64,000 bases of DNA from Deltaproteobacteria bacterium (GTDB lineage Bacteria > Desulfobacterota > GWC2-55-46 > JADFVP01): positions 19,615-83,614 of the forward strand of contig JAJRZX010000036.1 in assembly GCA_024275045.1 (NCBI GenBank). The letters run 5' to 3'. Both the position numbers and the translations under genes were made by a program. Under the pieces are notes generated by a model. It was not told the origin of the DNA. It worked only from the letters and a program-made list of their open reading frames with translations, and searched no databases. Positions 41,682-57,987 of this stretch are shown here, piece by piece (within the stretch, counting starts at the first letter, position 1; every line of letters starts with the position of its first letter).

Positions 41682-41755
41682 TGGAGCGGGCGATGGGAAT
41701 CGAACCCACGTGTGCAGCTTGGGAAGCTGCCATTCTACCATTGAATCACGCCCGC
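41682..41755 (-). tRNA. tRNA-Gly (anticodon CCC) with encoded CCA
   Basis: The reverse complement folds as a cloverleaf: acceptor GCGGGCG/CGCCCGC, D-arm ATTC..GAAT, anticodon stem GCAGC/GCTGC with loop TTCCCAA, T-arm GTGGG-TTCGATT-CCCAT. Confidence 0.85.
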
Positions 41756-43117: not shown

Positions 43118-44119
43118 ATGAGCCTTGCCATAGAGACGCGAAGTCTTAAAAGAGTGTATGGAAAGAAAACCGCCCTTGACGGCGTGGATTTATCCGTGCC
43201 AATGGGTGATTTTTTTGGCCTCTTAGGGCCTAACGGTGCAGGCAAGACCACGCTTATAAGGATACTCTCCACGCTTATTAAACCCTCAAGCGGCAGCGCC
43301 GCTGTAGCGGGTTTTGATGTAGTCAAGTCCTGTAATGACGTGCGCAGGCAGATAGGCGTGGTGCCTCAGGCCATGACCACGGATCTTGACCTTACGGCGC
43401 GTGAGGTCCTTGATATATACGCAAGGTTCTACGGTTTATCGGGTAAAAAAAGACGCGCGCGTATTGATGAGCTCCTTGAGCTCGTGGGGCTCACGCAGCG
43501 ATCCGCTGACCTTGTGGCTACTTTCTCAGGAGGCATGCGTCGCCGTCTTGAGATAGCCCGCGGTCTTGTTCATATGCCCACGCTCCTTATCCTTGACGAG
43601 CCCACTCTGGGCCTTGACCCTCAGACACGCCATGTTGTATGGGATATCCTCCGTAAATTCAGAGAGGAGTCCGGCCTTACCGTGCTCCTTACCACTCATT
43701 ACATGGAAGAGGCCGAGTCGCTCTGCGACCATGTGGCTATTATTGATAACGGCAATATCGTGGCCCTTGATACCGTAGCCGGGCTTAAGGCCATGATACC
43801 CAGTGAGGATGTTATTGAGTTAAGCCTCTCGGGTATAACTCCGGGTGAGGCAGAGTCCTGGATAACCTCCATAGAGATGGTGCATTCATGCACAGCGCGC
43901 GGAGACGACTTCGTAGTATCCGTGGCAGACGCCGTAAGTGTTCTGCCCGTGCTTCTCGAGGGCCTCAAGACCCGCGGGGCCACGGTATCGAGGATGGTGC
44001 TTAAAGAGCAGACCCTTGAGGATGTATTTATCCACTTTACGGGGCGTTCCATCAGGGAGGAAGGGGCAAAGAAGGTGAGCTTTTTTATCGGCGCAGGTGT
44101 TCCAAGAAAAATGTCATAA
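43118..44119 (+). CDS. ABC transporter ATP-binding protein (ABC-2/DrrA-like)
   Basis: Walker A GPNGAGKTT, the signature SGGMRRRL, and Walker B ILDEPT. Confidence 0.9.
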   Translation: MSLAIETRSLKRVYGKKTALDGVDLSVPMGDFFGLLGPNGAGKTTLIRILSTLIKPSSGSAAVAGFDVVKSCNDVRRQIGVVPQAMTTDLDLTAREVLDIYARFYGLSGKKRRARIDELLELVGLTQRSADLVATFSGGMRRRLEIARGLVHMPTLLILDEPTLGLDPQTRHVVWDILRKFREESGLTVLLTTHYMEEAESLCDHVAIIDNGNIVALDTVAGLKAMIPSEDVIELSLSGITPGEAESWITSIEMVHSCTARGDDFVVSVADAVSVLPVLLEGLKTRGATVSRMVLKEQTLEDVFIHFTGRSIREEGAKKVSFFIGAGVPRKMS

Positions 44120-44172
44120 GTCTAAACCTCTGTTCTTTATAAAAGCAGGGCAGGGGATTAAGAGGCCGTCTC

Positions 44173-45294
44173 ATGCATCGTATATACGCCTTAATAGAGA
44201 GAGATCTCAGGAAATTTATCCGCAACCCCTTTGTGGTTGGCGTATCCATAGCCATGCCCATAGTGTATCTCATTATCATGGGTTCGAGCTTTCAGGGAGA
44301 GCTGAAGAGTCTCTCCGTAGCAGTGGTGGATCAGGATAACGGCGAGTACGGGCGCAGTATCCTCAGTAACCTTCGCGCCGTGCAGCATGGCCCCGCCACT
44401 ATACGCGTTCTTACCGTAACAGACAAGTCCTCTGCCATGGAGGCCCTTGCCGACGGCACCTTCAAGGCCGTGCTTATCATCCCCCGTGATTTTTCAAAGA
44501 AGGTCATACGCGGCGAGACCGCTGATGTGGGGTTATTTCTTGATAACGTGGAGACTATATCCTCGGCTACCATTGAAAAAGCCGTAAGAGGGGCCGTGGG
44601 AGAGGTCTCCGTGGACTTTATTCCCGTTAGAGAGGGCCGTGGTCATGTCTTTGTACGGGCCATAAACACCTACGGCAAGATTGACTACGACCAGGGCCTT
44701 ATACCCGGCGTTGTGATTATGGCCATCTTCATAGGGGCCATGACAACAGGGGTCTTTAACGTGGTGATGGACAGATTTCTGGGTATTGACGAGAGTTATT
44801 TTCTAACCCCCTTATCCAAACTCGATATAGTCGTGGCCCTTGTTATAAGCGGGCTTATGGTCACTACCGTCCTTGCCGTTATCGTGCTCTTTTTAAGCAC
44901 ATTGACGGCAGGCATGTATCTCTGGGAGCTGCTGAGCCTTACGGGTTTTTTCTCTGTTCTTGCCGTATTCATCCTCTCGGCCTTATCGCTTCAGGGCTTG
45001 ATGTTCCTTGTCATGGGACGGGCCACTCACCCGAGGATTCTTGGCATTATGGGAGGGTTTCTTAACGTCATATTTTTCTTTCCAAGCGGGGCCATTTATC
45101 CGGTGGAGAGCTTTCCTCTGTGGCTGCAGTACTTTGCCGCCGTAAACCCCGAGACCTACTCCGTGCACGCCCTTAAGGCCGTAATATTCAAGGGCGCCGG
45201 GCTTGCCACCATTACCGGGGACCTGCTCTTTCTTGCTGGTTTTTCTTTTGTCGCCCTCACGGTAAGTATTATTTCATTTAAGCGAACGCTCTAA
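44173..45294 (+). CDS. ABC-2 type transporter permease
   Basis: Six TM segments and the ABC-2 membrane family pattern. It lies downstream of the ATPase. Confidence 0.8.
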   Translation: MHRIYALIERDLRKFIRNPFVVGVSIAMPIVYLIIMGSSFQGELKSLSVAVVDQDNGEYGRSILSNLRAVQHGPATIRVLTVTDKSSAMEALADGTFKAVLIIPRDFSKKVIRGETADVGLFLDNVETISSATIEKAVRGAVGEVSVDFIPVREGRGHVFVRAINTYGKIDYDQGLIPGVVIMAIFIGAMTTGVFNVVMDRFLGIDESYFLTPLSKLDIVVALVISGLMVTTVLAVIVLFLSTLTAGMYLWELLSLTGFFSVLAVFILSALSLQGLMFLVMGRATHPRILGIMGGFLNVIFFFPSGAIYPVESFPLWLQYFAAVNPETYSVHALKAVIFKGAGLATITGDLLFLAGFSFVALTVSIISFKRTL

Positions 45295-45420: not shown

Positions 45421-45449
45421 TTGACAGGGTTATAAAAATATATTAGAGT
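45421..45449 (+). promoter_or_regulatory. Putative promoter (-35 TTGACA, 17 bp spacer, -10 TAGAGT) driving the S-box leader
   Basis: Sequence match about 25 nt upstream of riboswitch P1. Confidence 0.35.
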
Positions 45450-45473
45450 TATCAATACAATTGAATAATGGAT

Positions 45474-45632
45474 ATCTTATCCAGAGTGGCGGAGGGACTG
45501 GCCCGATGAAACCACAGCAACCGGTACCGTAAAAGGTATGACAGGTGCTAAATCCAGCAGAGACGGTTAAACGTCTCTGGAAGATAAGAAGAATTACTGG
45601 ACACTCTTCTTATTAAAGAAGGGTTTTTTTTT
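45474..45632 (+). ncRNA. SAM-I (S-box) riboswitch with intrinsic terminator
   Basis: P1 runs 5' ATCTTATCCAGAG to 3' CTCTGGAAGATAAGA. Conserved cores present are GGCGGAGGGACTGGCCCGATGAAACC, GCAACC and AGGTGCTAAATCCAGCAGAG. An 8-bp terminator stem with a T9 tract follows. The antiterminator is GATAAGAAG pairing with CTTCTTAT. Confidence 0.85.
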
Positions 45633-45733
45633 GCCCAAGACCGCTCTCTCAATGTGTGAACAGGGGGCGTGGATACAGGTGGTTTTGTAACTTTAAATAT
45701 TTAACGTAAAGTCATTCTACAGGAGATGTTTAT

Positions 45734-46987
45734 ATGAAGTACATGAAAGGATTAAAGTGCAGGGAGTGCGCAAAGACATATCCCCTGGACCCCATCCATG
45801 TCTGCGAGCTCTGTTTCGGCCCACTTGAGGTGGATTATGATTATGATAATATTGCCAAGGTGCTTACAAAAGACCTTATTACAGGCAGGGCGCCCAATAT
45901 GTGGAGATACAGAGAGCTTCTTCCCATAGACGCCGAGCCCTCGGTTGGCCTTAACTCGGGTTTTACGCCTCTTATACGGGCCTATAACCTCGGCGAGGCA
46001 CTTGGTGTAAAGGAGCTTTACATTAAGAACGACGCCGTGAACTTTCCCACGCTCTCCTTTAAGGACCGCGTGGTCTCCGTTGCCATTTCGCGTGCCATAG
46101 AGATGGGGTTTGACGTAATAGCCTGCGCCTCCACGGGCAACCTTGCCAACTCCGTTGCCGCAAATTCCGCTGCCTGCGGCCTTGACAGTTACGTCTTTGT
46201 GCCCTACGACCTTGAGCAGACCAAGATTACGGGCACCATTGTCTACGGCACCAACCTTGTTGGCATAAAAGGCACCTATGACGAGGTGAACAGGCTCTGC
46301 AGCGAGATAGGCGGTAAATACGGCTGGGCCTTTGTAAATATTAACATCAGGCCATTTTACGCAGAGGGTTCAAAGACCTTTGGTTACGAGATAGCCGAGC
46401 AGCTTGGGTGGAAGCTGCCGCAGCACGTTATCGTGCCAATGGCCGGGGGCTCTCTTATTACAAAGATATGGAAGGCATTTAAAGAGTTCAAGGCCCTGGG
46501 TTTTGTTGACAGCGCTCCTGCCAGGATATACGGAGCGCAGGCCACGGGCTGCGCCCCCATAGTAACTGCCGTAAAGGAAAAGAGCGAGCTTATACGTCCG
46601 GTAAAACCCGATACCATCGCAAAGTCTCTTGCTATCGGCAACCCCGCGGACGGCTTTTATTCAGCCCGTACCATTCGCGATAGCGGCGGCTGGGCAGAGG
46701 ACGTATCTGATGATGAGATAATCGAGGCAATGAAGCTCCTGGCCGAGACAGAGGGCATATTCGCCGAGACAGCAGGCGGCGTGACGGTAGGGGTGACAAA
46801 GAAACTCATTGAGCAGGGACGCATTGCCCGTGACGAGTCCATTGTTATCTCTGTTACGGGTAACGGCCTTAAGACTCAGGAGTGCCTTGCGGGCAAGATC
46901 TCAGAGCCTCCTGTAATAGAGGCGAAGCTGGCCGAGTTCGACGCACTTGTGGATGGCGGCAAGATGAAAAAAGCCGCTATCAAATAA
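45734..46987 (+). CDS. Threonine-synthase-family PLP enzyme with an N-terminal zinc ribbon. It may be a genuine threonine synthase or an O-phosphohomoserine-dependent homocysteine synthase (MetM-like).
   Basis: PLP lysine in the SFKDR context, a Trp-synthase-beta fold, and an N-terminal C-x2-C...C-x2-C. It sits directly behind the S-box. Confidence 0.75.
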   Translation: MKYMKGLKCRECAKTYPLDPIHVCELCFGPLEVDYDYDNIAKVLTKDLITGRAPNMWRYRELLPIDAEPSVGLNSGFTPLIRAYNLGEALGVKELYIKNDAVNFPTLSFKDRVVSVAISRAIEMGFDVIACASTGNLANSVAANSAACGLDSYVFVPYDLEQTKITGTIVYGTNLVGIKGTYDEVNRLCSEIGGKYGWAFVNINIRPFYAEGSKTFGYEIAEQLGWKLPQHVIVPMAGGSLITKIWKAFKEFKALGFVDSAPARIYGAQATGCAPIVTAVKEKSELIRPVKPDTIAKSLAIGNPADGFYSARTIRDSGGWAEDVSDDEIIEAMKLLAETEGIFAETAGGVTVGVTKKLIEQGRIARDESIVISVTGNGLKTQECLAGKISEPPVIEAKLAEFDALVDGGKMKKAAIK

Positions 46988-47207
46988 GACGGGCTCTTAA
47001 GCGGCGGCGGTAAAGTACAGCGGGGATTATTAAGTGAAGTCCTGAGGCGGCGGTTCTTTCTTGTCCTGTTATAGAGGGGCGAAGTTCTCTTTTACCGCTG
47101 CTTTTGTTGTAATCAAAGGCCCTACTCTGTTATAATAAAAAAATTAACCTCATAATGCTACTTCTTCCCCTTTAAGTACGAGGGGCTTATTCAAGGAGGC
47201 CACTTAG

Positions 47208-48194
47208 ATGACGGACCATTACATAGAGGATAAGACTAACAGGGTTGACCTTGACCTTGAGAAACTCAAAGGAAAGGTTAACTTCAATGACCTTAAATCC
47301 GGGGGGTTTATAAAGCAGAAGCAGAAAGACCTCTTTACCGTGAGGCTGCGCTGTCCGGGCGGCATGATGACCACGGATAAGCTTATTGAGATTTCAAAGC
47401 TTGCCAAAAAATACAGCAAAGAAGGCATGGTGCATTTCAGCTACCGTCAATCCTTTGAGATACTCTATGTGGATTACAGGGACTTTCACGCACTGGTTTC
47501 GGAGCTTGAGGCGCTGGGGCAGAAGGTTGCCTCTTGCGGCCCCCGTGTCAGGGTGCCTACTGCCTGCGGTGGATGCGAGTACAACCCCAACGGACTTATA
47601 GACGCGCAGGCCATGGCCCGTATGGTGGACAAAGAATTCTTCGGCACAAATACGCCCCATAAGTTCAAGACCTCTTTCTCGGGCTGTCCCATTGATTGCT
47701 CAAGAACCGTTGAGATGGACCTTGGTTTTCAGGGCGTTGTAGACCCCGAGTGGGTGCAGGACCTCTGCACGGGCTGCACCATCTGCTCTGAAGCATGTAA
47801 GGAAGGCGCCATTGAGGCCCATCCCGATACAGGTGAACCAATATTCGATGTTAATAAATGCCTCTACTGCGCTGACTGCATTCGCGCCTGCCCAACAGAG
47901 GCTTGGAAGCCCAGGCGTCACGGATTTATCGTACGCATAGGCGGTAAACACGGCCGTCACCCCCTCGAGGGCGTTGAGGTATGCCGCTTTCTCCCTGAAG
48001 ACAAGGTAAGTCATGCCATTGATATGACCGTAAAGTGGTACAAGGCAAACGGCAAGAGTTTCGAGAGGATAGGAAGCACGCTTCAGAGGCTTGGCATGGA
48101 TAGTTATGTTAAGCACATGGCCCCGGTATTTGGAGACATGGCCGTGGTTCCAGAGCATCCGCCTACTGACAGGCCCCTTATAGACCAGGGCTGA
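47208..48194 (+). CDS. Small dissimilatory-type sulfite-reductase-like protein (Dsr-LP/alSir-like) with an inserted 2x[4Fe-4S] ferredoxin domain
   Basis: Putative siroheme/Fe-S Cys cluster ...TACGGCEY...SGCPIDC, followed by two ferredoxin motifs CTGCTICSEAC and CLYCADCIRACP. 328 aa. Confidence 0.55.
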   Translation: MTDHYIEDKTNRVDLDLEKLKGKVNFNDLKSGGFIKQKQKDLFTVRLRCPGGMMTTDKLIEISKLAKKYSKEGMVHFSYRQSFEILYVDYRDFHALVSELEALGQKVASCGPRVRVPTACGGCEYNPNGLIDAQAMARMVDKEFFGTNTPHKFKTSFSGCPIDCSRTVEMDLGFQGVVDPEWVQDLCTGCTICSEACKEGAIEAHPDTGEPIFDVNKCLYCADCIRACPTEAWKPRRHGFIVRIGGKHGRHPLEGVEVCRFLPEDKVSHAIDMTVKWYKANGKSFERIGSTLQRLGMDSYVKHMAPVFGDMAVVPEHPPTDRPLIDQG

Positions 48195-48359
48195 TATTAG
48201 TAGGGGCCGGTCTGGTAAAGACAGCTTATAAGCAGGTGGTACTTAAGAGAAACGTTAAAAGAATCAAGAGCGCCAAGACCGCGGTCGGCTTTATGTACCG
48301 CTTAGCGAGATGATATAACCTCCCTCAGGGATAACGATTAAGAAGAGCAGTGATAAAAG

Positions 48360-48605
48360 GTGGATATGGACGATATAACGGCAAAAGAGAGCATTGATCT
48401 ACGGGGCGTAATGTGCCCCACCAACTTTGTAAAGACAAAGCTTAAGCTTGAGGCCATGGACCCCGGGGATATTCTTGAGGTGGTTCTTGATGCAGGCGAA
48501 CCCATTGCCAACGTGCCAAAGAGCGTCAAGGAAGAGGGACATAAGATTGTCAAGGTAATTAAAGACGACGGCTCATTCAGGATTATGATAGAAGTCTCTG
48601 AGTAG
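48360..48605 (+). CDS. TusA/SirA-like sulfurtransferase (two-layered alpha/beta sandwich)
   Basis: 81 aa with the conserved Cys in LRGVMCPTNFVKTK (TusA CPxP-like position) and a DILEVV-type pattern. Confidence 0.55.
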   Translation: MDMDDITAKESIDLRGVMCPTNFVKTKLKLEAMDPGDILEVVLDAGEPIANVPKSVKEEGHKIVKVIKDDGSFRIMIEVSE

Positions 48606-48634
48606 CCTGTAATTCAACTTTTAAGGAGGCCGAA

Positions 48635-48919
48635 ATGCCAGTAAAGGTAAGGATACCAACACCGCTCAGAAAGATAACAAAGGACAACGATGAGGTTCTG
48701 GCCGAGGGGACTACTGTTACCGAGGTTATAGAGGACCTTGAGAAGAACTACCCCGGCCTCAAAGAGAGGATCTGCGAGGACGACGGCAACCTCCGCCGTT
48801 TTGTAAATCTTTATCTCAATGACGAGGACATACGTTTTAAGGATAACCTCAATACCAGCGTCTCTGATAATGACGAGTTATCCATTATCCCGGCCATAGC
48901 CGGCGGAGGTGCGGGTTGA
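48635..48919 (+). CDS. ThiS/MoaD-family sulfur-carrier protein with the C-terminal extension ...AGGG-AG
   Basis: 94 aa with a beta-grasp pattern. A Gly-Gly is followed by two extra residues (AG) before the stop. The stop overlaps the TTG start of the next gene (GTTGA). Confidence 0.6.
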   Translation: MPVKVRIPTPLRKITKDNDEVLAEGTTVTEVIEDLEKNYPGLKERICEDDGNLRRFVNLYLNDEDIRFKDNLNTSVSDNDELSIIPAIAGGGAG

Positions 48920-49152
48920 AAAAAAAGGTCTATCTTACTTATCCCTCCGATAAGGTTAAGGAGCCTCTTCTTTGCCTGTGTTCGCGCAAATTCAAGGTCT
49001 TAACCAATATCAGGCAGGCTTCTGTAACGGATAAGATTGGAATAGTTGCCCTTGAGCTTGAGGGCGAGGCCTCTGAGATAGAGAAGGCCATGGACTTTTT
49101 TACGGAAAACGGTGTAATGGTCGAGCCTATTGAGATGGATATTATAGTTTAG
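48916..49152 (+). CDS. NIL-domain (MetN C-terminal-like, ACT-fold) small protein
   Basis: 78 aa. RKFKVLTNIRQASVTDKIGIVALELEGE...GVMVEPI parallels E. coli MetN C2 ([30 protein letters not shown]...VKVEVLGYV). It is translationally coupled to the carrier gene. Confidence 0.5.
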   Translation: MKKKVYLTYPSDKVKEPLLCLCSRKFKVLTNIRQASVTDKIGIVALELEGEASEIEKAMDFFTENGVMVEPIEMDIIV

Positions 49153-49178
49153 CTCCGTTCTGGTCTGTATGTTTTCTG

Positions 49179-49230
49179 CCCGCTCTTGAGACCATCTGAA
49201 CACATGGCCGAGAGCGGGTATTTTGTATTC
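49179..49230 (+). terminator. Putative terminator after the NIL gene (stem CCCGCTCT...AGAGCGGG followed by TATTTTGTATT)
   Basis: An 8-bp GC-rich stem with a large loop and a U-rich tail. A promoter-like TTGACA follows at 49271. Confidence 0.35.
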
Positions 49231-49402
49231 ATCAGCCTTCTTTTTTCCCGTAAATTCGCTGAAATTATTCTTGACAAATGCGGTAGGGTATTATAAATTT
49301 ATATACTTGATATTTTTACTAAGGTAATAGAAATACCTTATAAAAAAAGGGGTTTTACATGGACTCTCTATTATTGGTCCAATACCGCGGAAGAGGTCTT
49401 GA

Positions 49403-50362
49403 ATGAGAAAAAACAATACACTGGAGAGTTTTGAGGCAGAGAAAGGACCCTCGGCAGGCAAGGCACGGTTCTCGGCCCTTGAGCTTGTTGGTAATACGCC
49501 TCTTGTGAGGATAAACAGGATTACAAAAGACCTGCCGAGCGGTGTTGAGGTATACGCCAAGCTTGAGTCCGCCAACCACGGCGGCTCTGTAAAAGACAGA
49601 CCCGCGCTGCGCATGATTGAAGACGCGGAGAAGAGCGGGCGGCTTACAAAGGAAAAGATAATACTGGACTCCACATCAGGCAACACGGGCATTGCCTATG
49701 CCTGGATAGGCGCCGTAAAGCAACACCGCGTGGAGCTTGTGGTGCCGGAGAACGTAAGCTCAGAGCGAAAAAAGATACTTGACGCATTTGGGGCGAGGGT
49801 GATTTTCTCAAGCCCTTTTGAGGGCTCTGACGGGGCCATACGCCTTGCGTGGAAGCTATACGTGGCTAACCCCGAAAAGTACTGCAAGCTTGACCAGTAC
49901 AACAACCCCTCAAACCCCCTGGCCCATTACTACGGCACAGGGCTTGAGATTATAGAGCAGACAGGCGGGGCCATTACCCACTTTGTCACTACCATCGGCA
50001 CAGGGGGAACCATAATGGGCACCATGCGCAGGCTAAAGGAATTTAACAGCAATATTCAGGTCATCGCTGTAGAGCCTGATAACCCCATGCACGGCCTTGA
50101 GGGTCTTAAACACATGGCCTCATCAATAGTGCCGGGCATATATCACGAGGACTCTCTTGACGGCAAGGTCCCTGCCTCAACAGAGGAGTCTTATGAGATG
50201 ACCAAGAGGCTCGCGAGAGAAGAGGGGCTTCTTGTGGGCCAGTCTTCAGGGGCGGCCATGCTTGGAGCCCTTAAGGTGGCAAGCGGCCTTACCGAGGGAG
50301 TGGTGGTAACCATCTTTCCCGATGGCGGAGACAAATACCTCTCCACACGTCTCTGGGAGTAG
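49403..50362 (+). CDS. Cysteine synthase (CysK/CysM family; possibly thiocarboxylate-dependent, CysM-like)
   Basis: PLP lysine in the SVKDR context, and GNTGIA, GTGGT motifs. 319 aa. Confidence 0.85.
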   Translation: MRKNNTLESFEAEKGPSAGKARFSALELVGNTPLVRINRITKDLPSGVEVYAKLESANHGGSVKDRPALRMIEDAEKSGRLTKEKIILDSTSGNTGIAYAWIGAVKQHRVELVVPENVSSERKKILDAFGARVIFSSPFEGSDGAIRLAWKLYVANPEKYCKLDQYNNPSNPLAHYYGTGLEIIEQTGGAITHFVTTIGTGGTIMGTMRRLKEFNSNIQVIAVEPDNPMHGLEGLKHMASSIVPGIYHEDSLDGKVPASTEESYEMTKRLAREEGLLVGQSSGAAMLGALKVASGLTEGVVVTIFPDGGDKYLSTRLWE

Positions 50363-50695
50363 GGTACATAGGGCGGCAGGGGGGACGTGCGCAGGGGCAA
50401 GTGGGTGCCGGGGTGAGATAACCGGGGTAGTGCGGAGTTTATATGTAGTGGTGCTTTGGGTCCAATAGGAAGTAAGTACCCCATGACGCACGATTTAATT
50501 GTTTTCATTACGTATTGATTTACAAGACCTTCTTAACTTTAAAATTTAAAATCTGAGATTTTTTTAAAGGGCCTTTGCGAGACCCTTTTAGAGTTTTTGC
50601 AGGTAAGAGCATTTTTTTCTACAGACAGATACGCGTAAGAAGAATATGGGGGCAAAGAGCCCTCTTAACTTAAAAATAAACTTAAGGGGTAAGTC

Positions 50696-51163
50696 ATGGG
50701 TCTGCTCTCAAAGTTCAGGAAAAAAGAAAAATTGTATGTTCCAAAGGAATTTTATGACGATATGATTGAGCACGCCAAGCTGGAGTATCCGCATGAGTGC
50801 TGCGGCGTTCTTATAGGCAACTCCATGATGGGGGACAGGAAGATATTTCACACCGAGAGGTGCACTAACCTCAATAAAGAGCGCGCCCATGACAGGTATC
50901 TCATGGACCCCAGAGAGATAAACCTCGCTGATAAGGGTGCACGCGCGCAGTCCCTTGAGATTATGGGGTTTTACCACTCGCACCCGGATCATCCCGACAG
51001 GCCCTCGGAGTACGACCGTGAGGTGGCCCACCCCGGGTACTCGTACATAATACTCTCGGTAAAGGACGGCAAAGAGGTTACGGCAAAGTCCTGGACATTT
51101 GCCGAGCTTGATGAGCCCTTTGTGGAAGAGGCCATTGAGGTAACAGTATCAAAGTGGAAGTAA
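50696..51163 (+). CDS. JAMM/MPN+ zinc metalloprotease (Mec+/HcyD/QbsD-like)
   Basis: The complete JAMM motif E...HSH-x7-S-x2-D (HECCG ... HSHPDHPDRPSEYD). Confidence 0.75.
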   Translation: MGLLSKFRKKEKLYVPKEFYDDMIEHAKLEYPHECCGVLIGNSMMGDRKIFHTERCTNLNKERAHDRYLMDPREINLADKGARAQSLEIMGFYHSHPDHPDRPSEYDREVAHPGYSYIILSVKDGKEVTAKSWTFAELDEPFVEEAIEVTVSKWK

Positions 51164-51286
51164 GAGTTTCTTTTAAGGTATAAATAAAGGTTGTATTTAT
51201 CTTATCATAAAGCTTTTTTGCGGTAGGGTTACATCTATAACCGTGAAATAACTTTTTCTCTTTTTTTTAAGGGGGTAGTTCATAAG

Positions 51287-52096
51287 ATGGACTTTACAGA
51301 TGAGCAGATAGAGCGTTACTCAAGACACATTATACTGCCCGAGGTAGGGGGAAAAGGTCAGACAAAACTCCTTGAGTCCAAGGTCTTTGTCCTTGGAGCA
51401 GGAGGGCTTGGCTCACCGGCGCTTCTGTACCTTGCAGCCGCGGGTGTTGGCACAATAGGCATCGCAGACGGCGATGTGGTGGATGTAAGTAACCTGCAGC
51501 GTCAGATAATCCATGACAACAATACAGTGGGCATGGCAAAGGTGGAGAGCGCTCGTAAATCCATCGAGGCCCTTAACCCCGATGTGGTGGTTAATACCTT
51601 TAACAGCCGTCTTGGTATAGAGAATATCCGCGAGGTGCTCCGTGACTACGATGTTGTGCTTGACGGCTCTGATAACTTTCCAACGCGTTACCTTATGAAC
51701 GACGCCTCCTTTTTTGAGGGCAAGACCCTTATCTCGGGCAGCATGTTCAGGTTTGACGGACAGGTCTCTGTCTTTAAGCCGGCTGATGGGTACCCCTGCT
51801 ACAGGTGCCTCTATCCCGAGCCGCCGCCAAAGGGCATGGTACCGTCCTGTCAGGAGGCCGGTGTGCTTGGCGCTCTTGCCGGTGTTATCGGTGTGCTGCA
51901 GGCTGTTGAGGCAATTAAAGAGATACTCTCCATAGGCAAGGTCCTTGCAGGAGAGCTCTTGATATTTGACGCCCTTGGTATGAGCTTTCGTAAAGTCAAG
52001 GTGCGGCGCGACCCTGATTGCGCGCTCTGCGGCGAAAATGCCACTATAAAGGAACTCTCGCTCTATGAGCAGGCACCCTGTGAGCTGCGTACCTGA
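51287..52096 (+). CDS. ThiF/MoeB-family E1-like adenylyltransferase (no rhodanese domain)
   Basis: Nucleotide loop GAGGLGSP, an RQ motif, and Zn-binding C-x2-C...C-x2-C (PCYRC, DCALCG). Confidence 0.85.
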   Translation: MDFTDEQIERYSRHIILPEVGGKGQTKLLESKVFVLGAGGLGSPALLYLAAAGVGTIGIADGDVVDVSNLQRQIIHDNNTVGMAKVESARKSIEALNPDVVVNTFNSRLGIENIREVLRDYDVVLDGSDNFPTRYLMNDASFFEGKTLISGSMFRFDGQVSVFKPADGYPCYRCLYPEPPPKGMVPSCQEAGVLGALAGVIGVLQAVEAIKEILSIGKVLAGELLIFDALGMSFRKVKVRRDPDCALCGENATIKELSLYEQAPCELRT

Positions 52097-52235
52097 TACG
52101 TTCTGACGGGTCTTTTCCGGTGATAGAAAAGAGGCGTAAAGAGGTCTTACTTTAAAGGCAGGTCATCTTGCCTCTTAAGGTAAACCCTTAACTCCGCTGA
52201 GGGGAGCCGCACCTGCAAGAGGCAGTTGAACTGTT

Positions 52236-53462
52236 GTGATAAGAAAAAATTACTTTAAGAACCCCGGTGCGTTGAAGATAGACCTTATGCTGAGGGGGGC
52301 GGCCATTGAAGACCCTGTTGCCAAGGCGCGGGCCTGCGGGGCCACCGGCATAGACATACTCCTGCCTAAAAAAATACTTGTAAACATACCCTGCGAAGAC
52401 TGGTTTACCGTGCGCTCGCCTTACGTGATTAAAAAATCCGCCGGTAAAAAGGGGTATATCCTTACCAACGGCAGTGACAGCGTACCTGTAAGCATACTTG
52501 ATAGACCGGAGTTTTACAGCCGCAAGACCGCTACCGGGGTGCCTTTTGGTGATATTGCCGTAACGCACGGCAGTTACACCGTTATAACGCCTGATAAGAG
52601 GTGCGGTTTTTTTAAATCCAGCGCCCAGTGCAGGTACTGCGCCGGGAACTTCAGCACCGATGCCGCTGAGAATGGCGGACGCGTCTATACCGTAGAAGAG
52701 GTCCTTGAGACAGTTAAGGCCGTGCTCAAGGAAAAGGCGTCAGGCATAATATACCTCTCCATAGGTTTTAGCGATGGCGATGACGGGGGCATTAAGTTTC
52801 TCGAACCCTATGTAAAGGCGATTAAGTCCCATTTTAACTGCCTTGTCGCGGTAGAGGCCCTGCCCCCTGCCAGTAACGAGTGGATAGACAGGGCATACGC
52901 CTTTGGCGTTGACTCAATACTTTATAATCTGGATATCTTTGATAAGGAGCTTTTTTCTGTAATATGCCCGGGCAGGGCCGGCCTTATAGGAAGACAGCGT
53001 ACTCTTGATGCCCTTAAATACGCCGCTGGTATCTTTGCAAACGGCACAGTGGCCTCGCACCTCATAGTTGGCCTTGAACCCCCGGGCTCTACGATTATGG
53101 GCATTGATTTTCTTACGGACTCAGGTGTTGTGCCTATACTGCCCATATTCCGCCCCTCAAAGGACAGGCCCCTTGATGTGACGGACCTTGATGCAGAGGT
53201 GATAATACCGGTGTACCGGCACCTGTACAAGACGCTTAAGAAAAAAGGCATCAACTTCAACTGGGTCCGTGATATAAGCATGGTTACTACCCCTGTTGAG
53301 GGCAGATATCTTTTAAATGACGAGAAGAGCTCATCGCCGTTTCTTGATAATTTTTACGAGTCCAGGCTTGGCATGAAAACAGCCTGGGGGCTAAGCGCAA
53401 TCAGAAGACGGCTAAGGGTTAAAAAAATTAAAAAAGAGGACCCCCCCGAGGGTTCTCCGTAG
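52236..53462 (+). CDS. Hypothetical protein with a C-x9-C-x2-C cysteine cluster followed by a TIM-barrel-like region. Possibly a non-canonical radical-SAM/Fe-S enzyme.
   Basis: 408 aa containing CGFFKSSAQCRYCAGNF. No canonical C-x3-C-x2-C is present. Glycine-rich (GGG-like) segments follow. Confidence 0.35.
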   Translation: MIRKNYFKNPGALKIDLMLRGAAIEDPVAKARACGATGIDILLPKKILVNIPCEDWFTVRSPYVIKKSAGKKGYILTNGSDSVPVSILDRPEFYSRKTATGVPFGDIAVTHGSYTVITPDKRCGFFKSSAQCRYCAGNFSTDAAENGGRVYTVEEVLETVKAVLKEKASGIIYLSIGFSDGDDGGIKFLEPYVKAIKSHFNCLVAVEALPPASNEWIDRAYAFGVDSILYNLDIFDKELFSVICPGRAGLIGRQRTLDALKYAAGIFANGTVASHLIVGLEPPGSTIMGIDFLTDSGVVPILPIFRPSKDRPLDVTDLDAEVIIPVYRHLYKTLKKKGINFNWVRDISMVTTPVEGRYLLNDEKSSSPFLDNFYESRLGMKTAWGLSAIRRRLRVKKIKKEDPPEGSP

Positions 53463-53480
53463 CAGCAGTGGAGTTGTCCC

Positions 53481-54905
53481 GTGAGAGTAGAGATTGACAG
53501 AAGACCGATATGGGTAATTCTCGCCGGCAAGGCGCTGAGACCTGTTTTCTTTCTCTTGCTTGCACTGGGGTTTATCCTCTTTCTTCAGCTTCCCGTGCCT
53601 GAGGGCCTTGGGACAGGGGGGATGAGGGCAATAGCTGTTTTTTTGCTATGCCTCGTGCTCTGGGTCTCAAACGCAGTGCCCGTGGCTATTACCGGGCTCT
53701 TTGCCATAGTGCTTGTCCCGCTCCTCGGGGTGCTGCCGCGCGGGGCCACGTACTCGCTATTTGGCAATGAGGCAGTGTTTTTTATACTGGGGGCCTTTAT
53801 ACTCTCAGGCGCGGTCATGCAGTCAGGGCTCTCGAACAGAGTGGCCCTGCGCCTCATGGAGAAGCACGGCGGGTCTCCGAAACGCCTTATAATAAGCATT
53901 TTTTTGCTTGCAGCGGCCCTCTCGTTTGTTATGAGCGAGCATGCCGTTGCGGCCATGCTCTTTCCCATTGTGCTTGAGATATCAAAGAGTCTGAAACTCA
54001 GGCCCGGCGAGTCCAATTACGGAAAGCTCCTCTTCTTCGCCCTTGCCTGGGGTTCTGTCATAGGCGGGGTTGGGACTTTTCTTGGCGGAGCGCGTGTGCC
54101 GCTGGCAATGGGAATACTCAAAGAAACAACGGGCTCTACCATAGGTTTTTTGGATTATACCGTGGCCGTGGCGCCCCTTGTGGTGGTCCTCTTAATCGTG
54201 GGGTATATCGTGCTGACGAGGTTTTTTCCCGTTGATATCGATGGTGTGGAGAACGCCCACAAGGTAATCGTGAGGCGCGCGCGGGCCCTTGGAAAGGTAC
54301 GCCCAAGAGAGTACGCCGTTGGTTTAATACTTGGCATTACCATATTGCTCTGGATAACAATCGGCAAGACCGTAGGGCTTGCCGCCATTGCCATGTTATC
54401 TGTTATGGCCCTATTTGTCCTTAAACTCGTAAAATGGCGCGAGATTGAGGAGTACGTGAACTGGGGCATAATACTCATGTACGGCGGCGCCATTATACTC
54501 GGCACTGCCCTTGACAGGAGCGGCGCCGCAAAGTGGATGGTAGACGCCATTATGACGCAGTGGGCTCAGACGCCCATAACGGTTATAGCCCTCTTCTCGC
54601 TCCTGGCAATACTGCTAACAGAGTCCATGAGCAACGCCGCGGTTATCGCTGTTCTGCTGCCCGTGAGCATTGGCATGGCGGGCCGTACCAATATGAGCCC
54701 CGAGGTCCTTACCTATGTGGTGGCCATTCCCGCGGGGCTGGCCTTTATGCTGCCCATGAGTACCCCGGCTAACGCCATTGCCGTATCAAGCGATTACATA
54801 TCGGTTCGTGATATGGCAAAGGGCGGGGTGATAATGTTTTTAACCTCCTGGGTTACATTTAACCTCATGGCGCACTTTTATTGGCCCCTCATAGGGCTGA
54901 GATAG
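53481..54905 (+). CDS. DASS/SLC13-family (ArsB/NhaD-fold) anion transporter, plausibly a sulfate permease
   Basis: 474 aa with about 12-14 TM helices and an internal-repeat architecture typical of CitT/SLC13. It sits in the sulfate-assimilation context. Confidence 0.7.
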   Translation: MRVEIDRRPIWVILAGKALRPVFFLLLALGFILFLQLPVPEGLGTGGMRAIAVFLLCLVLWVSNAVPVAITGLFAIVLVPLLGVLPRGATYSLFGNEAVFFILGAFILSGAVMQSGLSNRVALRLMEKHGGSPKRLIISIFLLAAALSFVMSEHAVAAMLFPIVLEISKSLKLRPGESNYGKLLFFALAWGSVIGGVGTFLGGARVPLAMGILKETTGSTIGFLDYTVAVAPLVVVLLIVGYIVLTRFFPVDIDGVENAHKVIVRRARALGKVRPREYAVGLILGITILLWITIGKTVGLAAIAMLSVMALFVLKLVKWREIEEYVNWGIILMYGGAIILGTALDRSGAAKWMVDAIMTQWAQTPITVIALFSLLAILLTESMSNAAVIAVLLPVSIGMAGRTNMSPEVLTYVVAIPAGLAFMLPMSTPANAIAVSSDYISVRDMAKGGVIMFLTSWVTFNLMAHFYWPLIGLR

Positions 54906-54988
54906 GTCTGTACTTTAAATAGGCGGGTTTATGCAAAATAATGGTAATAAACCCGCCATTTTGGTTTACGAACTCATTTAATTAGGTT

Positions 54989-55459
54989 ATGATGACCAAT
55001 ACTAAGATACTGCTTGTTTTATCCACTCATGTGTACTCTGATAAGGCCATTGAGTACGCCGTCAGGCGGGCCAGGGAGGAAGAGAGGCAGCTTGTAGCTT
55101 TTTTTCTTCTTGAGTCTGAGCTTGCCGAGGAGGCGTCTGAGAGGTTCTCGGACATTGGTTTTACAGGCGACAGGCCCTCGGCCACATTATCTGAGTCTCT
55201 TATGCGCGAGTACCGGCAGAGGGGGTATGAGGCCCTTGGCAGGGCGCAGATAAAGGCCATGGAGGATGGTGTGGACTTTGAGCCTCTGTTAAAAGAGGGG
55301 CCTTATGTATCTACCATACTTGAGGTAATAAGGGCACACGGTATAGGTCTTACCGTTATACAGAGGCGAAAGGAGAGGTCCTTTCTGCATTACTTTAAAA
55401 AAGGTTTATCCGTAAAGGTTAAAGAGGCGGCTTCATGCGAGGTCGTTATCATCGAGTAA
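54989..55459 (+). CDS. UspA-like alpha/beta domain protein (ATP-motif-less)
   Basis: 156 aa with weak USP-like periodicity. No glycine-rich ATP loop. Confidence 0.3.
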   Translation: MMTNTKILLVLSTHVYSDKAIEYAVRRAREEERQLVAFFLLESELAEEASERFSDIGFTGDRPSATLSESLMREYRQRGYEALGRAQIKAMEDGVDFEPLLKEGPYVSTILEVIRAHGIGLTVIQRRKERSFLHYFKKGLSVKVKEAASCEVVIIE

Positions 55460-55486
55460 ATACAAGCTGAATAAAGGGAGGTAGAG

Positions 55487-56191
55487 ATGGCAGGAAAGCA
55501 GTGGAGTGAAGAAGAACTTAAGGCAGTATCCGATGAGCTTGAAGATAAGGGACCCCAGGCCGCCATTCAATGGGCTGTGGATAATTTCGATACACAGGAC
55601 TTATCTCTTGCCTGTAGTTTCGGCGCCGAGGACGTTGCTCTTGTGGATATGCTTGTGAAGATAAAACCTGATGCAAGGATTTTTTATCTTGATACAAATA
55701 AGCTCTTCAAGGAGACCATTGATGTAATGGAGCGCCTTAAAGAGAGGTACAATATTAACCCTGAGAAGTATACCTCAAAGATGAGCCTTGCCGAGCAGGC
55801 CGCCGAGTTCGGCGATGAGCTCTGGGCAAAGGATCCGAAGAAGTGCTGCGACATAAGAAAGATAACACCTCTTAAAGAAGCTCTCTCAGGGCTTAGTGCC
55901 TGGATTACCGGTATAAGAAGGGATCAGGCACCGGCAAGGGCCAACGCCCCTGTAGTTGGCTGGGACGCCATGTTCAACCTTGTGAAGATAAACCCGCTGG
56001 TAAAGTGGACGAGCGAGGATGTGTGGGATTATATCCGCGCCAATAACGTGCCTTACAATGAGCTTCATGACAAGAATTACCCCTCAATAGGCTGTGAGCC
56101 ATGCACCAATGAGGTGAAGCCAGGCGAGGACCCAAGGGCCGGAAGATGGGCCGGATTTAAGAAGACAGAGTGCGGACTTCACGACAAGTAA
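55487..56191 (+). CDS. cysH: Assimilatory adenylyl-sulfate (APS) reductase, Fe-S type (CysH family)
   Basis: The PAPS_reduct fold plus a Cys-Cys pair (KKCCDIRK) and C-x2-C (GCEPCT) for the [4Fe-4S] cluster. The C-terminal ECGLH carries the catalytic Cys. Confidence 0.85.
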   Translation: MAGKQWSEEELKAVSDELEDKGPQAAIQWAVDNFDTQDLSLACSFGAEDVALVDMLVKIKPDARIFYLDTNKLFKETIDVMERLKERYNINPEKYTSKMSLAEQAAEFGDELWAKDPKKCCDIRKITPLKEALSGLSAWITGIRRDQAPARANAPVVGWDAMFNLVKINPLVKWTSEDVWDYIRANNVPYNELHDKNYPSIGCEPCTNEVKPGEDPRAGRWAGFKKTECGLHDK

Positions 56192-56284
56192 TCGTAAGAA
56201 CGCCTGTGAGGTAATTGCGGAAGCATAGTGATTAATATAACTTTATCTCTTGCAACTAAACAGTCTTAGGGAGGATTTTCAAAG

Positions 56285-57448
56285 GTGGATACATTAATCG
56301 CCCCTCATGGCGGGGTGCTTATAAACAGGGTCGTAGAGGGTAAGGCCCGTCTTGATCTGGAAAAAGCCTCGATAAATATGAACACCCTTGTTCTTAATGA
56401 GAGGGAGATCTCAGACCTTGAGATGATAGCAACAGGCGGTTTCAGCCCTCTTGCCGGTTTTATGTGTCACGATGATTATCACTCTGTGATGGATACCATG
56501 ACGCTCACTAATGGTCTGCCCTGGACCATACCTGTTACTCTCTCTGCCACAGAGGCAGAGGCGGCTGAGCTGAGAGAGGGTACGGACGTGGCCCTTAATA
56601 ACGAGAACGGCGAGCTTCTGGCCATCCTTCATCTTGAGCAGATATTCAAGCACGACCCTGAGAAAGAGGCCCTTCGCGTTTACGGAACCCCTGATGAGGC
56701 ACACCCAGGTGTGAAAAACGTCTATGCAATGGGCTCCCAACTCCTTGGCGGCAAGATATCTCTGCTTGAGCGTACCGAGTATGACCAGTTTAACGAGTAC
56801 CGCAGAGACCCCATTGAGACAAGGCAGCTCTTTAAGAAGAACGGCTGGCGCCGCGTTGTGGGTTTTCAGACCAGAAACCCCATACACAGGGCCCATGAGT
56901 ACATTCAAAAATGCGCGCTTGAGACAGTTGACGGTCTGATGATACATCCTCTTGTAGGCGAGACAAAGTCCGATGATATACCCGCGGATGTGCGTATGAA
57001 CTGCTACGAGACGCTTATGGCCAAGTACTATCCAGCCGACAGGGTGGTGCTCTCCGTATATCCCGCGGCCATGCGCTACGCAGGGCCCCGCGAGGCTGTC
57101 TTTCACGCACTTATACGCAAGAACTACGGATGCACCCACTTTATCGTTGGCAGAGACCATGCTGGCGTAGGCGGCTACTACGGAACCTTTGACGCTCATC
57201 TTATATTTAACAAGTTTGAGCCCGAGGCCATAGGCATAGCCCCCATGTTCTTTGATTATACCTTTCACTGCAAGAGTTGCGGCGGCATGGCCTCGTACAA
57301 GACATGCCCCCATGATTCGTCTGAGCACATTACCTTATCAGGCACAAAGGTGCGGGAGATGCTGAGGGCCGGCACGTGTCCGCCGCCCGAGTTCTCAAGG
57401 CCCGAGGTTGCAGAGGTCCTTATTAAGGCCATGAAATCCGGCGCATAA
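56285..57448 (+). CDS. sat: Sulfate adenylyltransferase (ATP sulfurylase)
   Basis: QTRN...H motif ([13 protein letters not shown]), a PUA-like N-domain and GRDHAG. A GTG start is assumed. Confidence 0.9.
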
Positions 57449-57608
57449 GGGAGTTCATGCCGTGGTACCCGGCAGCTCCCCCGTGGGGCTGCCAGTGGTA
57501 TTGCACAAGCTGAGAGAATACCTGCAGGCAAGCGGTGCCGAGAGGCAAATAAAGTGATTGCCTGCTCCGTTACCGGCAGTTCAGCGAGCACAATTCAATA
57601 TATGTGAG

Positions 57609-57643
57609 AGGAGGGGGGTGATTAGCCCCCTTCCTTTTTTTTT
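57609..57643 (+). terminator. Rho-independent terminator downstream of sat
   Basis: A G/C stem (GGAGGGGGG...GCCCCCTTCC) followed by T9. Confidence 0.6.
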
Positions 57644-57987
57644 ACCCTTTTAAACTCATCCCTGGGGTTTTTTTGTGGATTTTCTCTCTCATCTATTACC
57701 CTCAGATGAGCCGCTCCCGCGTAAAAACCTTCTTTTTTCTTTAACTTATTGTTTTCCTCTTAATTTTGCTGTTAATATTACTCTTATGTTATATGATAAG
57801 TTATATTTGTTCTTCTATCTGAAGGCGGAACCTTATTTATATGGTTTTAAGGCTCTATGGGACCTCATGGGAAGAGGGGGGGAAGCAGGCAGGCAGAGAA
57901 TTTTTGTATATGATTCAGAGAGAGCAGAGGGGGGCATATGGCGGCAGTGCGCTCACATTTTTATAAGTCAGGGGCATATTATCTCTT

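Follow-up and report, generated by a model that had tools for sequence, protein, structure and literature searches.

Two described systems stand closest to the locus reported here. The first is the set of gene neighborhoods compiled by Iyer, Burroughs, and Aravind in 2006 (Genome Biol 7:R60, PMC1779556, Table 1, row 4e; called class 4e below), in which a ThiS/MoaD-type carrier and a JAB protease occur with an E1 enzyme that "always lacks" a rhodanese domain and with an obligatory SirA (i.e., TusA) protein. Such neighborhoods were found in Geobacter metallireducens, Wolinella succinogenes (HcyS/HcyD/HcyF/MetY), several Firmicutes, and others, and the authors reached the conclusion that we also favor, namely, that sulfate-derived sulfur ends on the carrier. 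The second is the metM-metO pair of Streptomyces albulus. According to the passages that treat it in PMC12172450 (citing Hasebe et al. 2024, Appl Environ Microbiol 90:e01247-24) and in a GapMind preprint of 2026, an S-adenosylmethionine (SAM) riboswitch lies 5' of metM; the same passages of PMC12172450 state that MetM makes homocysteine from O-phosphohomoserine and the MetO-thiocarboxylate, with Mec and MoeZ as helpers. Here we analyze a cluster of 13 genes from a Deltaproteobacteria bacterium (assembly GCA_024275045.1, contig JAJRZX010000036.1, positions 19,615 to 83,614; this whole stretch of 64,000 nucleotides is referred to as the window), in which a MetM-type module is fused with a sulfate-assimilation neighborhood built on a ubiquitin-like (Ubl) carrier. 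The genes fall into block 1, which encodes a ThrC-like pyridoxal 5'-phosphate (PLP) enzyme, a small sulfite reductase, TusA, the carrier, and a NIL-domain protein, and block 2, which runs from cysM to sat.

With class 4e, the cluster shares the carrier and JAMM protease, the rhodanese-less E1, and SirA/TusA, as well as a sulfate transporter, a (phospho)adenosine 5'-phosphosulfate [(P)APS] reductase, an ATP sulfurylase, a sulfite reductase, and a homocysteine-forming PLP enzyme. The last of these differs in kind, being a MetM-like member of the ThrC family rather than an O-acetylhomoserine sulfhydrylase (MetY); domain searches of the cluster found no PLP enzyme of the Cys/Met-metabolism (MetY) type. 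The transporter belongs to the DASS family, whereas that of class 4e is an ABC system, and the cluster has no APS kinase, an absence that fits a route through APS. The cluster further adds CysM, NIL, Usp, and a variant radical SAM protein, and a SAM-I riboswitch heads block 1. As far as the S. albulus system is described in the sources named above, it has in common with the window a ThrC-homologous enzyme, a 5' SAM riboswitch, and a ThiS-family carrier encoded in the same gene block, together with the need for a Mec/JAMM protease and an E1 of the MoeZ/MoeB type. In the actinomycete locus, however, the carrier has a free Gly-Gly end and is encoded directly after metM, whereas the window places the reductase and TusA genes between the two and its carrier has a cleavable tail. 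Moreover, the E1 of the window lacks the rhodanese domain that MoeZ has, and the sulfate activation genes adjoin.

Three further systems overlap with the cluster in part. Like the CysO-CysM-Mec+ system of Mycobacterium tuberculosis (with MoeZ), it encodes a CysO-like carrier, a CysM-family enzyme, a JAMM protease, and an E1, but its CysM is nearer to the enterobacterial enzyme, its E1 has no rhodanese domain, and the carrier gene does not lie beside cysM. With the group III Dsr-like proteins, Fsr-C, and AsrC, the reductase shares a small single polypeptide, siroheme-[4Fe-4S] motifs, four Arg/Lys ligands, and a two-cluster ferredoxin insert. In contrast to Fsr and AsrC, it stands alone, with neither an F420H2 dehydrogenase half nor AsrAB, and its gene is always beside that of TusA. 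Finally, in the DUF39/NIL-ferredoxin homocysteine pathway of methanogens and Desulfovibrio, as in the window, NIL is genetically tied to homocysteine formation. The NIL protein of the window is nevertheless a bare domain of 78 residues that lacks the ferredoxin module, and since no DUF39 or COG2122 gene is present, the cluster does not represent that pathway.

An earlier note on this DNA presented the cluster as a new combination marked by three features, a view that cannot be kept as worded, as the neighborhoods were known in 2006 (PMC1779556), the Dsr-like proteins in 2012 (PMC3448663), and, to judge from the relevant part of PMC12172450, the riboswitch-metM-metO arrangement in 2024. One of the three features, a Dsr-like protein as the assimilatory reductase, had been described already: Susanti and Mukhopadhyay (PMC3448663) listed group III Dsr-like proteins in Geobacter, Desulfovibrio, and Syntrophus. 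As for the joint occurrence of TusA, ThiS, and NIL, TusA with ThiS is part of the 2006 description, and NIL is an addition. The replacement of MetY by a ThrC-like enzyme follows a pathway known since 2024 but is new inside a cluster of this type. Our search of the literature on TusA with assimilatory sulfite reductases, and on SAM riboswitches with threonine synthase, turned up no account of this cluster. What is new, then, is the fusion of a MetM module with the sulfate-assimilation/Ubl neighborhood (MetM standing in place of MetY), the presence of a single carrier gene alongside two PLP enzymes, the strict pairing of TusA and reductase genes in three phyla, also at places that have neither a carrier nor an E1 gene close by, and two lineage-restricted accessory genes, those for the radical SAM and NIL proteins.

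Based on its gene content, the cluster probably leads from sulfate to homocysteine and cysteine through a thiocarboxylate carrier. The DASS permease would import sulfate, Sat would convert it to APS, the Fe-S-type CysH would reduce APS to sulfite, and the Fsr-C-like reductase would bring sulfite to the level of sulfide. On the carrier side, the JAMM protease is predicted to trim the variable C-terminal extension of the carrier and so expose its Gly-Gly end, which the rhodanese-less E1 would adenylate; the adenylate may then become a thiocarboxylate by attack of sulfide or by transfer from a TusA persulfide, which would replace the missing rhodanese. The MetM-like enzyme would combine this thiocarboxylate with O-phosphohomoserine to give homocysteine, and the CysM-like enzyme would make cysteine from an activated serine and either the thiocarboxylate or free sulfide. 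The JAMM protease may also free the amino acid from its carrier adduct, as Mec+ and HcyD do. When SAM is plentiful, the riboswitch would terminate transcription of block 1, or at least of its first gene. The earlier note held that every step from sulfate uptake to a protein-thiocarboxylate donor is encoded together. Domain content, the closest characterized relatives, and gene context support that reading, and it is from homology and context that we infer the substrates, the transfer steps, and the sharing of one carrier between the two PLP enzymes.

The arrangement is a conserved trait of a lineage, as comparison with other genomes makes clear. We collected 80 loci from species-representative genomes by way of an alignment of the sulfite reductase family and mapped the 13 window proteins onto them. 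The genes are colinear in 22 species-level genomes and, in 28 further loci, colinear up to the end of the contig, far beyond chance. All colinear loci come from metagenome-assembled genomes of uncultured organisms titled Thermodesulfobacteriota or Deltaproteobacteria, with protein identities to the window that range from about 90% down to about 40 to 65%. The Usp gene keeps its position in 31 loci. About eight genomes (L039; also L018, L042, L044, L054, L056, and L060) have block 1 by itself, and the two blocks are therefore separable modules; in such genomes, block 2 must be elsewhere or absent. In L039 (12863 to 20577), block 1 is followed by the housekeeping genes leuS, lptE, holA, murJ, and mazG. 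A subset of loci (L011, L015, L016, L027 to L029, L034, and L045) has a Sat match of only 38 to 41% identity and a CysH match of 53 to 60%, and some of these loci carry extra sequence between the Usp, cysH, and sat genes, which suggests that other isoforms have taken over or that further genes, for example one for an APS kinase, have been inserted.

Profile searches against Pfam and NCBIfam with all 13 plus-strand open reading frames (ORFs) gave the assignments in Table 1. Domain identities, catalytic motifs, the riboswitch, the promoters, the terminators, and the conserved gene order are direct observations. The 13 genes, the riboswitch, and the flanking terminators all lie where the earlier note had put them, as do the terminator and new promoter that it proposed between the NIL and cysM genes.

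Table 1. Features of the cluster, with positions counted from the first nucleotide of the window
Feature	Coordinates	Strand	Basis
Sigma-70-like promoter, block 1 (TTGACA-17-TAGAGT)	45421..45449	+	Consensus scan, 10/12 matches; 25 nt 5' of riboswitch
SAM-I (S-box) riboswitch aptamer	45474..45590	+	RF00162, 85.6 bits, full model length
Riboswitch expression platform (terminator hairpin with U-run)	45603..45633	+	-9.2 kcal/mol
MetM-like ThrC-family PLP enzyme	45734..46987	+	PALP 231 bits; thrC hidden Markov models (HMMs) match too
Possible internal promoter (TTGTAA-18-TATAAT, extended -10 TG)	47107..47136	+	Consensus scan; position kept in close relatives
Fsr-C-like/group III Dsr-like siroheme sulfite reductase, 328 aa	47208..48194	+	NIR_SIR_ferr, NIR_SIR, and Fer4 domains
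TusA/SirA-family protein (Cys in GVMCPT)	48360..48605	+	PF01206, 75.8 bits
CysO/MetO-like ThiS-family carrier	48635..48919	+	ThiS 67 bits
Stand-alone NIL-domain protein, 78 aa	48916..49152	+	PF09383, 49.7 bits
Intrinsic terminator, end of block 1	49177..49229	+	-25.7 kcal/mol, z = -5.07, U-rich tail
Conserved sigma-70 promoter, block 2	49271..49299	+	Consensus scan and 8-genome spacer alignment
Inverted repeat TAAGGTA-N7-TACCTTA, cysM leader	49320..49340	+	Chance expectation in window 0.04
CysM-like cysteine synthase (PLP)	49403..50362	+	PALP 230 bits
JAMM/Mec+-type metalloprotease (HSHPDHPDRPSEYD motif)	50696..51163	+	Prok-JAB 89 bits; Desampylase HMM 79 bits
MoeB/ThiF-type E1, rhodanese-less, 269 aa	51287..52096	+	ThiF 264 bits, residues 11-246
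Variant radical SAM protein (Cx8CxxC)	52236..53462	+	NF045502, 169.7 bits (cut-off 125)
DASS-family anion symporter	53481..54905	+	TIGR00785 260 bits; Na_sulph_symp 205 bits
Usp-family protein	54989..55459	+	PF00582, 34 bits
Thioredoxin-dependent APS reductase CysH, Fe-S cysteines	55487..56191	+	TIGR02055 249 bits (cut-off 235.3)
ATP sulfurylase Sat	56285..57448	+	NF003166 570 bits; PUA_2 and ATP-sulfurylase domains
Intrinsic terminator, end of block 2	57606..57647	+	14-bp stem, U9 run; -24.6 kcal/mol, z = -4.2

The first gene of block 1, for the ThrC-like enzyme, is the one on which the proposed route to homocysteine depends. Its product is predicted to be a homocysteine synthase that acts on O-phosphohomoserine and depends on the carrier thiocarboxylate, and membership in the MetM clade is strongly suggested by comparison with its relatives. 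The best match in annotated collections is a gene of Nonomuraea gerenzanensis (55% identity over 406 residues). Immediately 5' of that gene lies a SAM-I riboswitch (68.7 bits), and immediately 3' lies a gene for a 91-residue carrier ending in AVAGG, the same layout as reported for metM-metO of S. albulus; identity of the window enzyme to annotated thrC genes is only 33 to 41%. The enzyme thus groups with a riboswitch- and carrier-linked actinomycete homologue, and this sequence test came out in favor of the earlier note. Were it a genuine threonine synthase all the same, the S-box would serve to balance O-phosphohomoserine between threonine and methionine. That reading draws on thrC HMMs that score above their cut-offs (TIGR00260, 290 bits; PRK08197, 312.7 bits) and on the fact that the closest solved structures are threonine synthases. 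We nevertheless consider it very unlikely, given that the riboswitch and the adjacent Gly-Gly carrier are shared with the metM-type locus of the actinomycete, that MetM proteins are routinely misannotated in this way according to the GapMind curators, and that the window protein begins with a CxxC...CxxC zinc ribbon that is missing from the solved threonine synthases (alignments to them begin at residues 52 to 58). ThrC homologues of a haloarchaeon and of Chlorohelix (36 to 40% identity) were also considered as MetM candidates and were rejected, as no carrier gene adjoins them.

Two minor points concern the same protein and its relative. The zinc ribbon (45734 to 45830, residues 8 to 32) barely passes the Pfam cut-off of the phage family "NinF" (27.7 versus 27.5 bits), almost certainly as a zinc-ribbon look-alike with no phage relationship. 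The Nonomuraea record (L081, NZ_LT559118.1, 11.85 Mb) is filed as "plasmid I" and is almost unannotated; evidently, it represents a chromosome. Of its three ThrC-like places, the one with the riboswitch-metM-metO-like arrangement is followed by groEL.

Control of the ThrC-like gene by SAM is well grounded in the leader. The covariance model is matched over positions 1 to 108 with E = 7.5e-19 and a score far above the gathering score of 44.4 bits. Downstream, the terminator hairpin (-9.2 kcal/mol) has a mutually exclusive alternative of similar stability, an antiterminator (-8.8 kcal/mol) in which the 3' strand of aptamer helix P1 pairs with the 5' arm of the terminator (45583 to 45592 with 45606 to 45615). 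This is the architecture of a classical S-box off-switch. A SAM-I riboswitch precedes the ThrC-like gene in all seven relatives scanned, the core motif is present in 36 loci, and each cluster has only this one riboswitch, 5' of the ThrC-like gene. Control of this first gene by the riboswitch is certain. How far the riboswitch reaches over the reductase, TusA, carrier, and NIL genes within block 1 is uncertain, and so is the "S-box-gated sulfur-carrier operon" of the earlier note, because a promoter-like element in the gap (median 191 nt across loci) precedes the reductase gene. This element keeps its position in close relatives, the remainder of the gap is not conserved, and no convincing terminator was found in the spacer between the two genes.

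The block from cysM to sat has a conserved promoter of its own. In an alignment of eight genomes, the promoter motif ATTATTCTTGACAA...GGTATTAT-AAT (the ATTATTCTTGACAA-N-GGTATTATAAT block) is nearly invariant, and the rest of the spacer between the NIL and cysM genes is unalignable. Each of the eight genomes carries its own GC-rich hairpin 5' of this promoter, and the hairpin sequences differ; the terminator of block 1 is therefore kept in position rather than in sequence. Given the conserved promoter and the positionally conserved terminator, block 2 is an independent transcription unit, and the cluster comprises two such units and possibly three. The spacer has a median length of 250 nt and is never shorter than 101 nt across loci; it and the gap 5' of the reductase gene are the two spacers that are long throughout. 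About 20 nt 3' of the promoter lies the perfect inverted repeat of the cysM leader, which is kept in the close relatives L002, L003, L004, and L007 and absent from more distant ones. It could be the operator of some regulator or, alternatively, a hairpin of the leader RNA.

M. tuberculosis CysO (3dwg_C) is the best solved match of the carrier (about 49% identity, E = 2e-22, end-to-end), and the carrier is 48% identical to the MetO-like protein of Nonomuraea. The CysO alignment places the terminal Gly-Gly at residues 90 and 91 and leaves GAG as a three-residue propeptide (AGG + GAG), which corrects the "GG-AG" tail of the earlier note. In about 58 orthologues, an invariant PAIAGG is followed by a hypervariable stretch of 0 to 6 residues, a pattern typical of a propeptide, which the JAMM protease of the same cluster would cleave off. 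Cleaved carrier propeptides are known from HcyS/HcyD and QbsE/QbsD. The JAMM protein has an intact HxHx7SxxD motif (HSHPDHPDRPSEYD) and the upstream Glu. The E1 has only a ThiF domain in its 269 residues and no C-terminal rhodanese domain, aligning solely with the C-terminal part (120 to 382) of the rhodanese-containing model PRK08762; in place of such a domain, the cluster has a TusA gene. Sets of ThiS, E1, and JAMM proteins are used elsewhere to make thiolated cofactors or natural products (thioquinolobactin, 2-thiosugars, and thiamin-like compounds are precedents), and one could imagine such a role here, with the radical SAM protein included: its core resembles those of ThiH, LipA, and BioB, and a ThiS/MoaD carrier (4n6e) is the second-best solved match of the window carrier. 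Nonetheless, the cluster offers the carrier no partners other than two PLP enzymes that form amino acids, control is exerted by a SAM riboswitch, and there is no ThiG, glycosyltransferase, or nonribosomal peptide synthetase/polyketide synthase gene nearby, which leaves this use of the carrier system highly improbable.

The NIL gene overlaps the carrier gene by 4 nt (the median of 58 loci) and is translationally coupled to it. Among 135 homologues of its product, the best 120 are all 78 residues long, and every named one of these is from the same lineage; one source labels a NIL homologue "L-aspartate semialdehyde sulfurtransferase ferredoxin."

The 328-residue protein is a relative of sulfite reductases, as the earlier note had proposed, and we place it among the group III Dsr-like proteins as Susanti and Mukhopadhyay define them. 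Of the solved structures, the C-terminal half of the F420-dependent sulfite reductase Fsr (7npa) matches best (140 bits), with residues 9 to 304 of the window protein aligned to Fsr residues 315 to 611. In an alignment of 13 diverse homologues, all retain the four basic sulfite ligands (R46, R80, K152, and K154), the siroheme-cluster cysteines (C120/C123 and C160/C164), and both ferredoxin-type [4Fe-4S] motifs of the insert (C187/C190/C193/C197 and C218/C221/C224/C228). The first siroheme-cluster motif is CxxC (C120 and C123), where Fsr aligns a Cx5C. One homologue bears the SEED label "sulfite reductase, GSU1351 type" in its source.

Genomic context argues for an assimilatory role of this reductase, whose family sits among sulfate-assimilation genes in three phyla. 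In Nitrospinota (L069, 6732 to 13283, and L072), the order is cysD, a cysN/cysC fusion, the reductase gene, tusA, cysH, a gene for a PHO4/PiT-family permease, and a second tusA. These two loci, of which L069 covers about 10 kb on each side of the reductase gene, showed no gene for a carrier, an E1, or a JAMM protease; TusA thus goes with the reductase and the permease and not with the Ubl system. In anammox Planctomycetes (L071, 9238 to 15572, from Candidatus Loosdrechtia; also L067, L070, L073, L075 to L077, L079, and L080), genes for a siroheme synthase, the reductase, a DsrE-like protein, CysM, a JAMM protease, TusA, a Rieske protein, and a GltD-like NAD(P)H oxidoreductase with Fe-S domains follow one another, and neither a ThiS nor an E1 gene was detected in these loci; the GltD-like protein may be the electron donor. 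A different function, as a nitrite reductase or as an enzyme that detoxifies sulfite in the manner of group II Fsr of anaerobic methanotrophic (ANME) archaea, deserves mention, as the NIR_SIR domains do not separate sulfite from nitrite and, according to the portion of PMC9295563 that bears on this, Fsr-family enzymes include a nitrite reductase. However, the reductase gene lies among sat, cysH, and cysDN in three phyla and beside the siroheme synthase gene in anammox bacteria, all four sulfite-binding basic residues are invariant, and the cluster has no other sulfite reductase to complete the pathway. We thus regard both functions as very unlikely.

In 78 loci, the reductase gene is followed by tusA (median gap, 31.5 nt), which invites a bolder idea. 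The reductase might hand reduced sulfur to TusA and not release it as free sulfide, and TusA would then load the E1-activated carrier, giving a protein-bound relay from sulfite to homocysteine and cysteine. Such a relay would parallel, on the assimilatory side, those of DsrAB-DsrC and TusA-DsrE; in anammox bacteria the DsrE-like protein would help, and the variant radical SAM protein and the NIL protein coupled to the carrier would be components that had escaped recognition. We consider the relay unlikely, though worth stating.

Several observations weigh against the route from sulfate through the carrier to both amino acids. The sole carrier gene lies in the riboswitch-headed block and the E1 and JAMM genes lie in the other, a split whose regulatory logic is not obvious. 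The cluster itself lacks genes for siroheme synthesis, for a homoserine kinase, and for an electron donor to the reductase. The MetM assignment leans on an uncharacterized actinomycete orthologue, and the score with the threonine synthase model PRK08197 is just above the cut-off of 303 bits. That the DASS symporter imports sulfate is a guess from context. The sulfur donor of the CysM-like enzyme, either the carrier thiocarboxylate or free sulfide, is uncertain: its score with the cysM model TIGR01138 (367.6 bits) is below the equivalog cut-off of 394.2, and it scores about 231 bits against CysM of Escherichia coli and Salmonella and 203 bits against that of M. tuberculosis. E. coli CysM uses free sulfide or thiosulfate.

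The main rival explanation starts from this last point. Carrier, TusA, and E1 might serve the MetM-like enzyme only, with the CysM-like enzyme an ordinary O-acetylserine sulfhydrylase working on free sulfide or thiosulfate, in which case the cluster would consist of a classical sulfate-to-cysteine pathway beside a MetM/MetO module and not of a two-product thiocarboxylate system. Besides the nearer likeness to the enterobacterial enzymes, this explanation has in its favor that the carrier is encoded in the metM block, that this block lacks a nearby cysM in about eight genomes, and that actinomycetes keep separate CysO and MetO carriers. On the other hand, cysM is followed by the JAMM and E1 genes in every complete locus and by the JAMM gene in anammox bacteria, which is the signature of CysO/CysM/Mec+, and the carrier is equally like CysO and the MetO-like protein. 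We consider such a division of sulfur use possible, if somewhat unlikely, and retain the reading in which the one carrier probably serves both enzymes.

The family assignments of Sat and of the Fe-S-type CysH are secure. KKCCDIRK, GCEPC, and ECGLH are visible in CysH and supply the CC...CxxC cysteines of the Fe-S type.

The protein that the earlier note called an unknown TIM-barrel protein with a Cys motif indeed has such a motif and a barrel-type fold, but its family is known, as it is a variant radical SAM protein of NF045502. C123, C132, and C135, which form a Cx8CxxC motif in place of the canonical CxxxCxxC, and C244 are invariant. An AlphaFold2 model (predicted local distance difference test score of 70) has a radical-SAM-like partial barrel, whose best fold matches are LipA, PylB, ThiH, HydE, and BioB at template modeling scores of 0.4 to 0.6; a sequence search against solved structures gave no match. 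As the fold search returned only generic radical SAM cores, we assign no function to the protein. Among 5.8 billion sequences, 232 homologues were detectable, and the best 120 of these are all at least 57% identical. Like the NIL gene, the radical SAM gene is lineage restricted.

If the proposed scheme is correct, an uncultured lineage of Thermodesulfobacteriota makes methionine by way of O-phosphohomoserine and a carrier thiocarboxylate, and most of its members may make cysteine likewise, with the sulfur supplied by a small Fsr-like sulfite reductase and not by CysJI or Sir. Automated annotation would then miss homocysteine synthesis in these genomes and report a surplus "threonine synthase," and the resulting predictions of auxotrophy would be wrong. 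The cluster is also a compact, self-contained gene set for reconstituting the chemistry from sulfate to homocysteine. It raises the questions of why the TusA gene accompanies that of the reductase in three phyla and of what the variant radical SAM and NIL proteins do.

Some smaller observations concern the intergenic regions and the surroundings of the cluster. Just 5' of the ribosome binding site of the reductase gene is a small hairpin with a C-rich and a G-rich arm (47167 to 47185), and relatives have a hairpin of different sequence in the same place; we rejected it as an attenuator, as its stability is no better than that of shuffled sequence (z = -0.74). The noncoding gap between the cysM and JAMM genes (50363 to 50695) measures 333 nt, compared to a median of 64 nt in relatives, and it contains no second carrier gene, no plausible ORF of any kind, and no Rfam match. 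A permissive Rfam scan of the intergenic regions between 46900 and 52300 likewise found no known RNA. Elsewhere in the window, a partial survey turned up obg, proB, and proA among other genes and no met, thr, or cys genes. About 4 kb 5' of the cluster, a tRNA gene (41685 to 41755, minus strand, 66.4 bits) is separated from it by a pair of ABC-2 transporter genes (43118 to 45294), and a tRNA gene also lies 5' of the cluster in L007.

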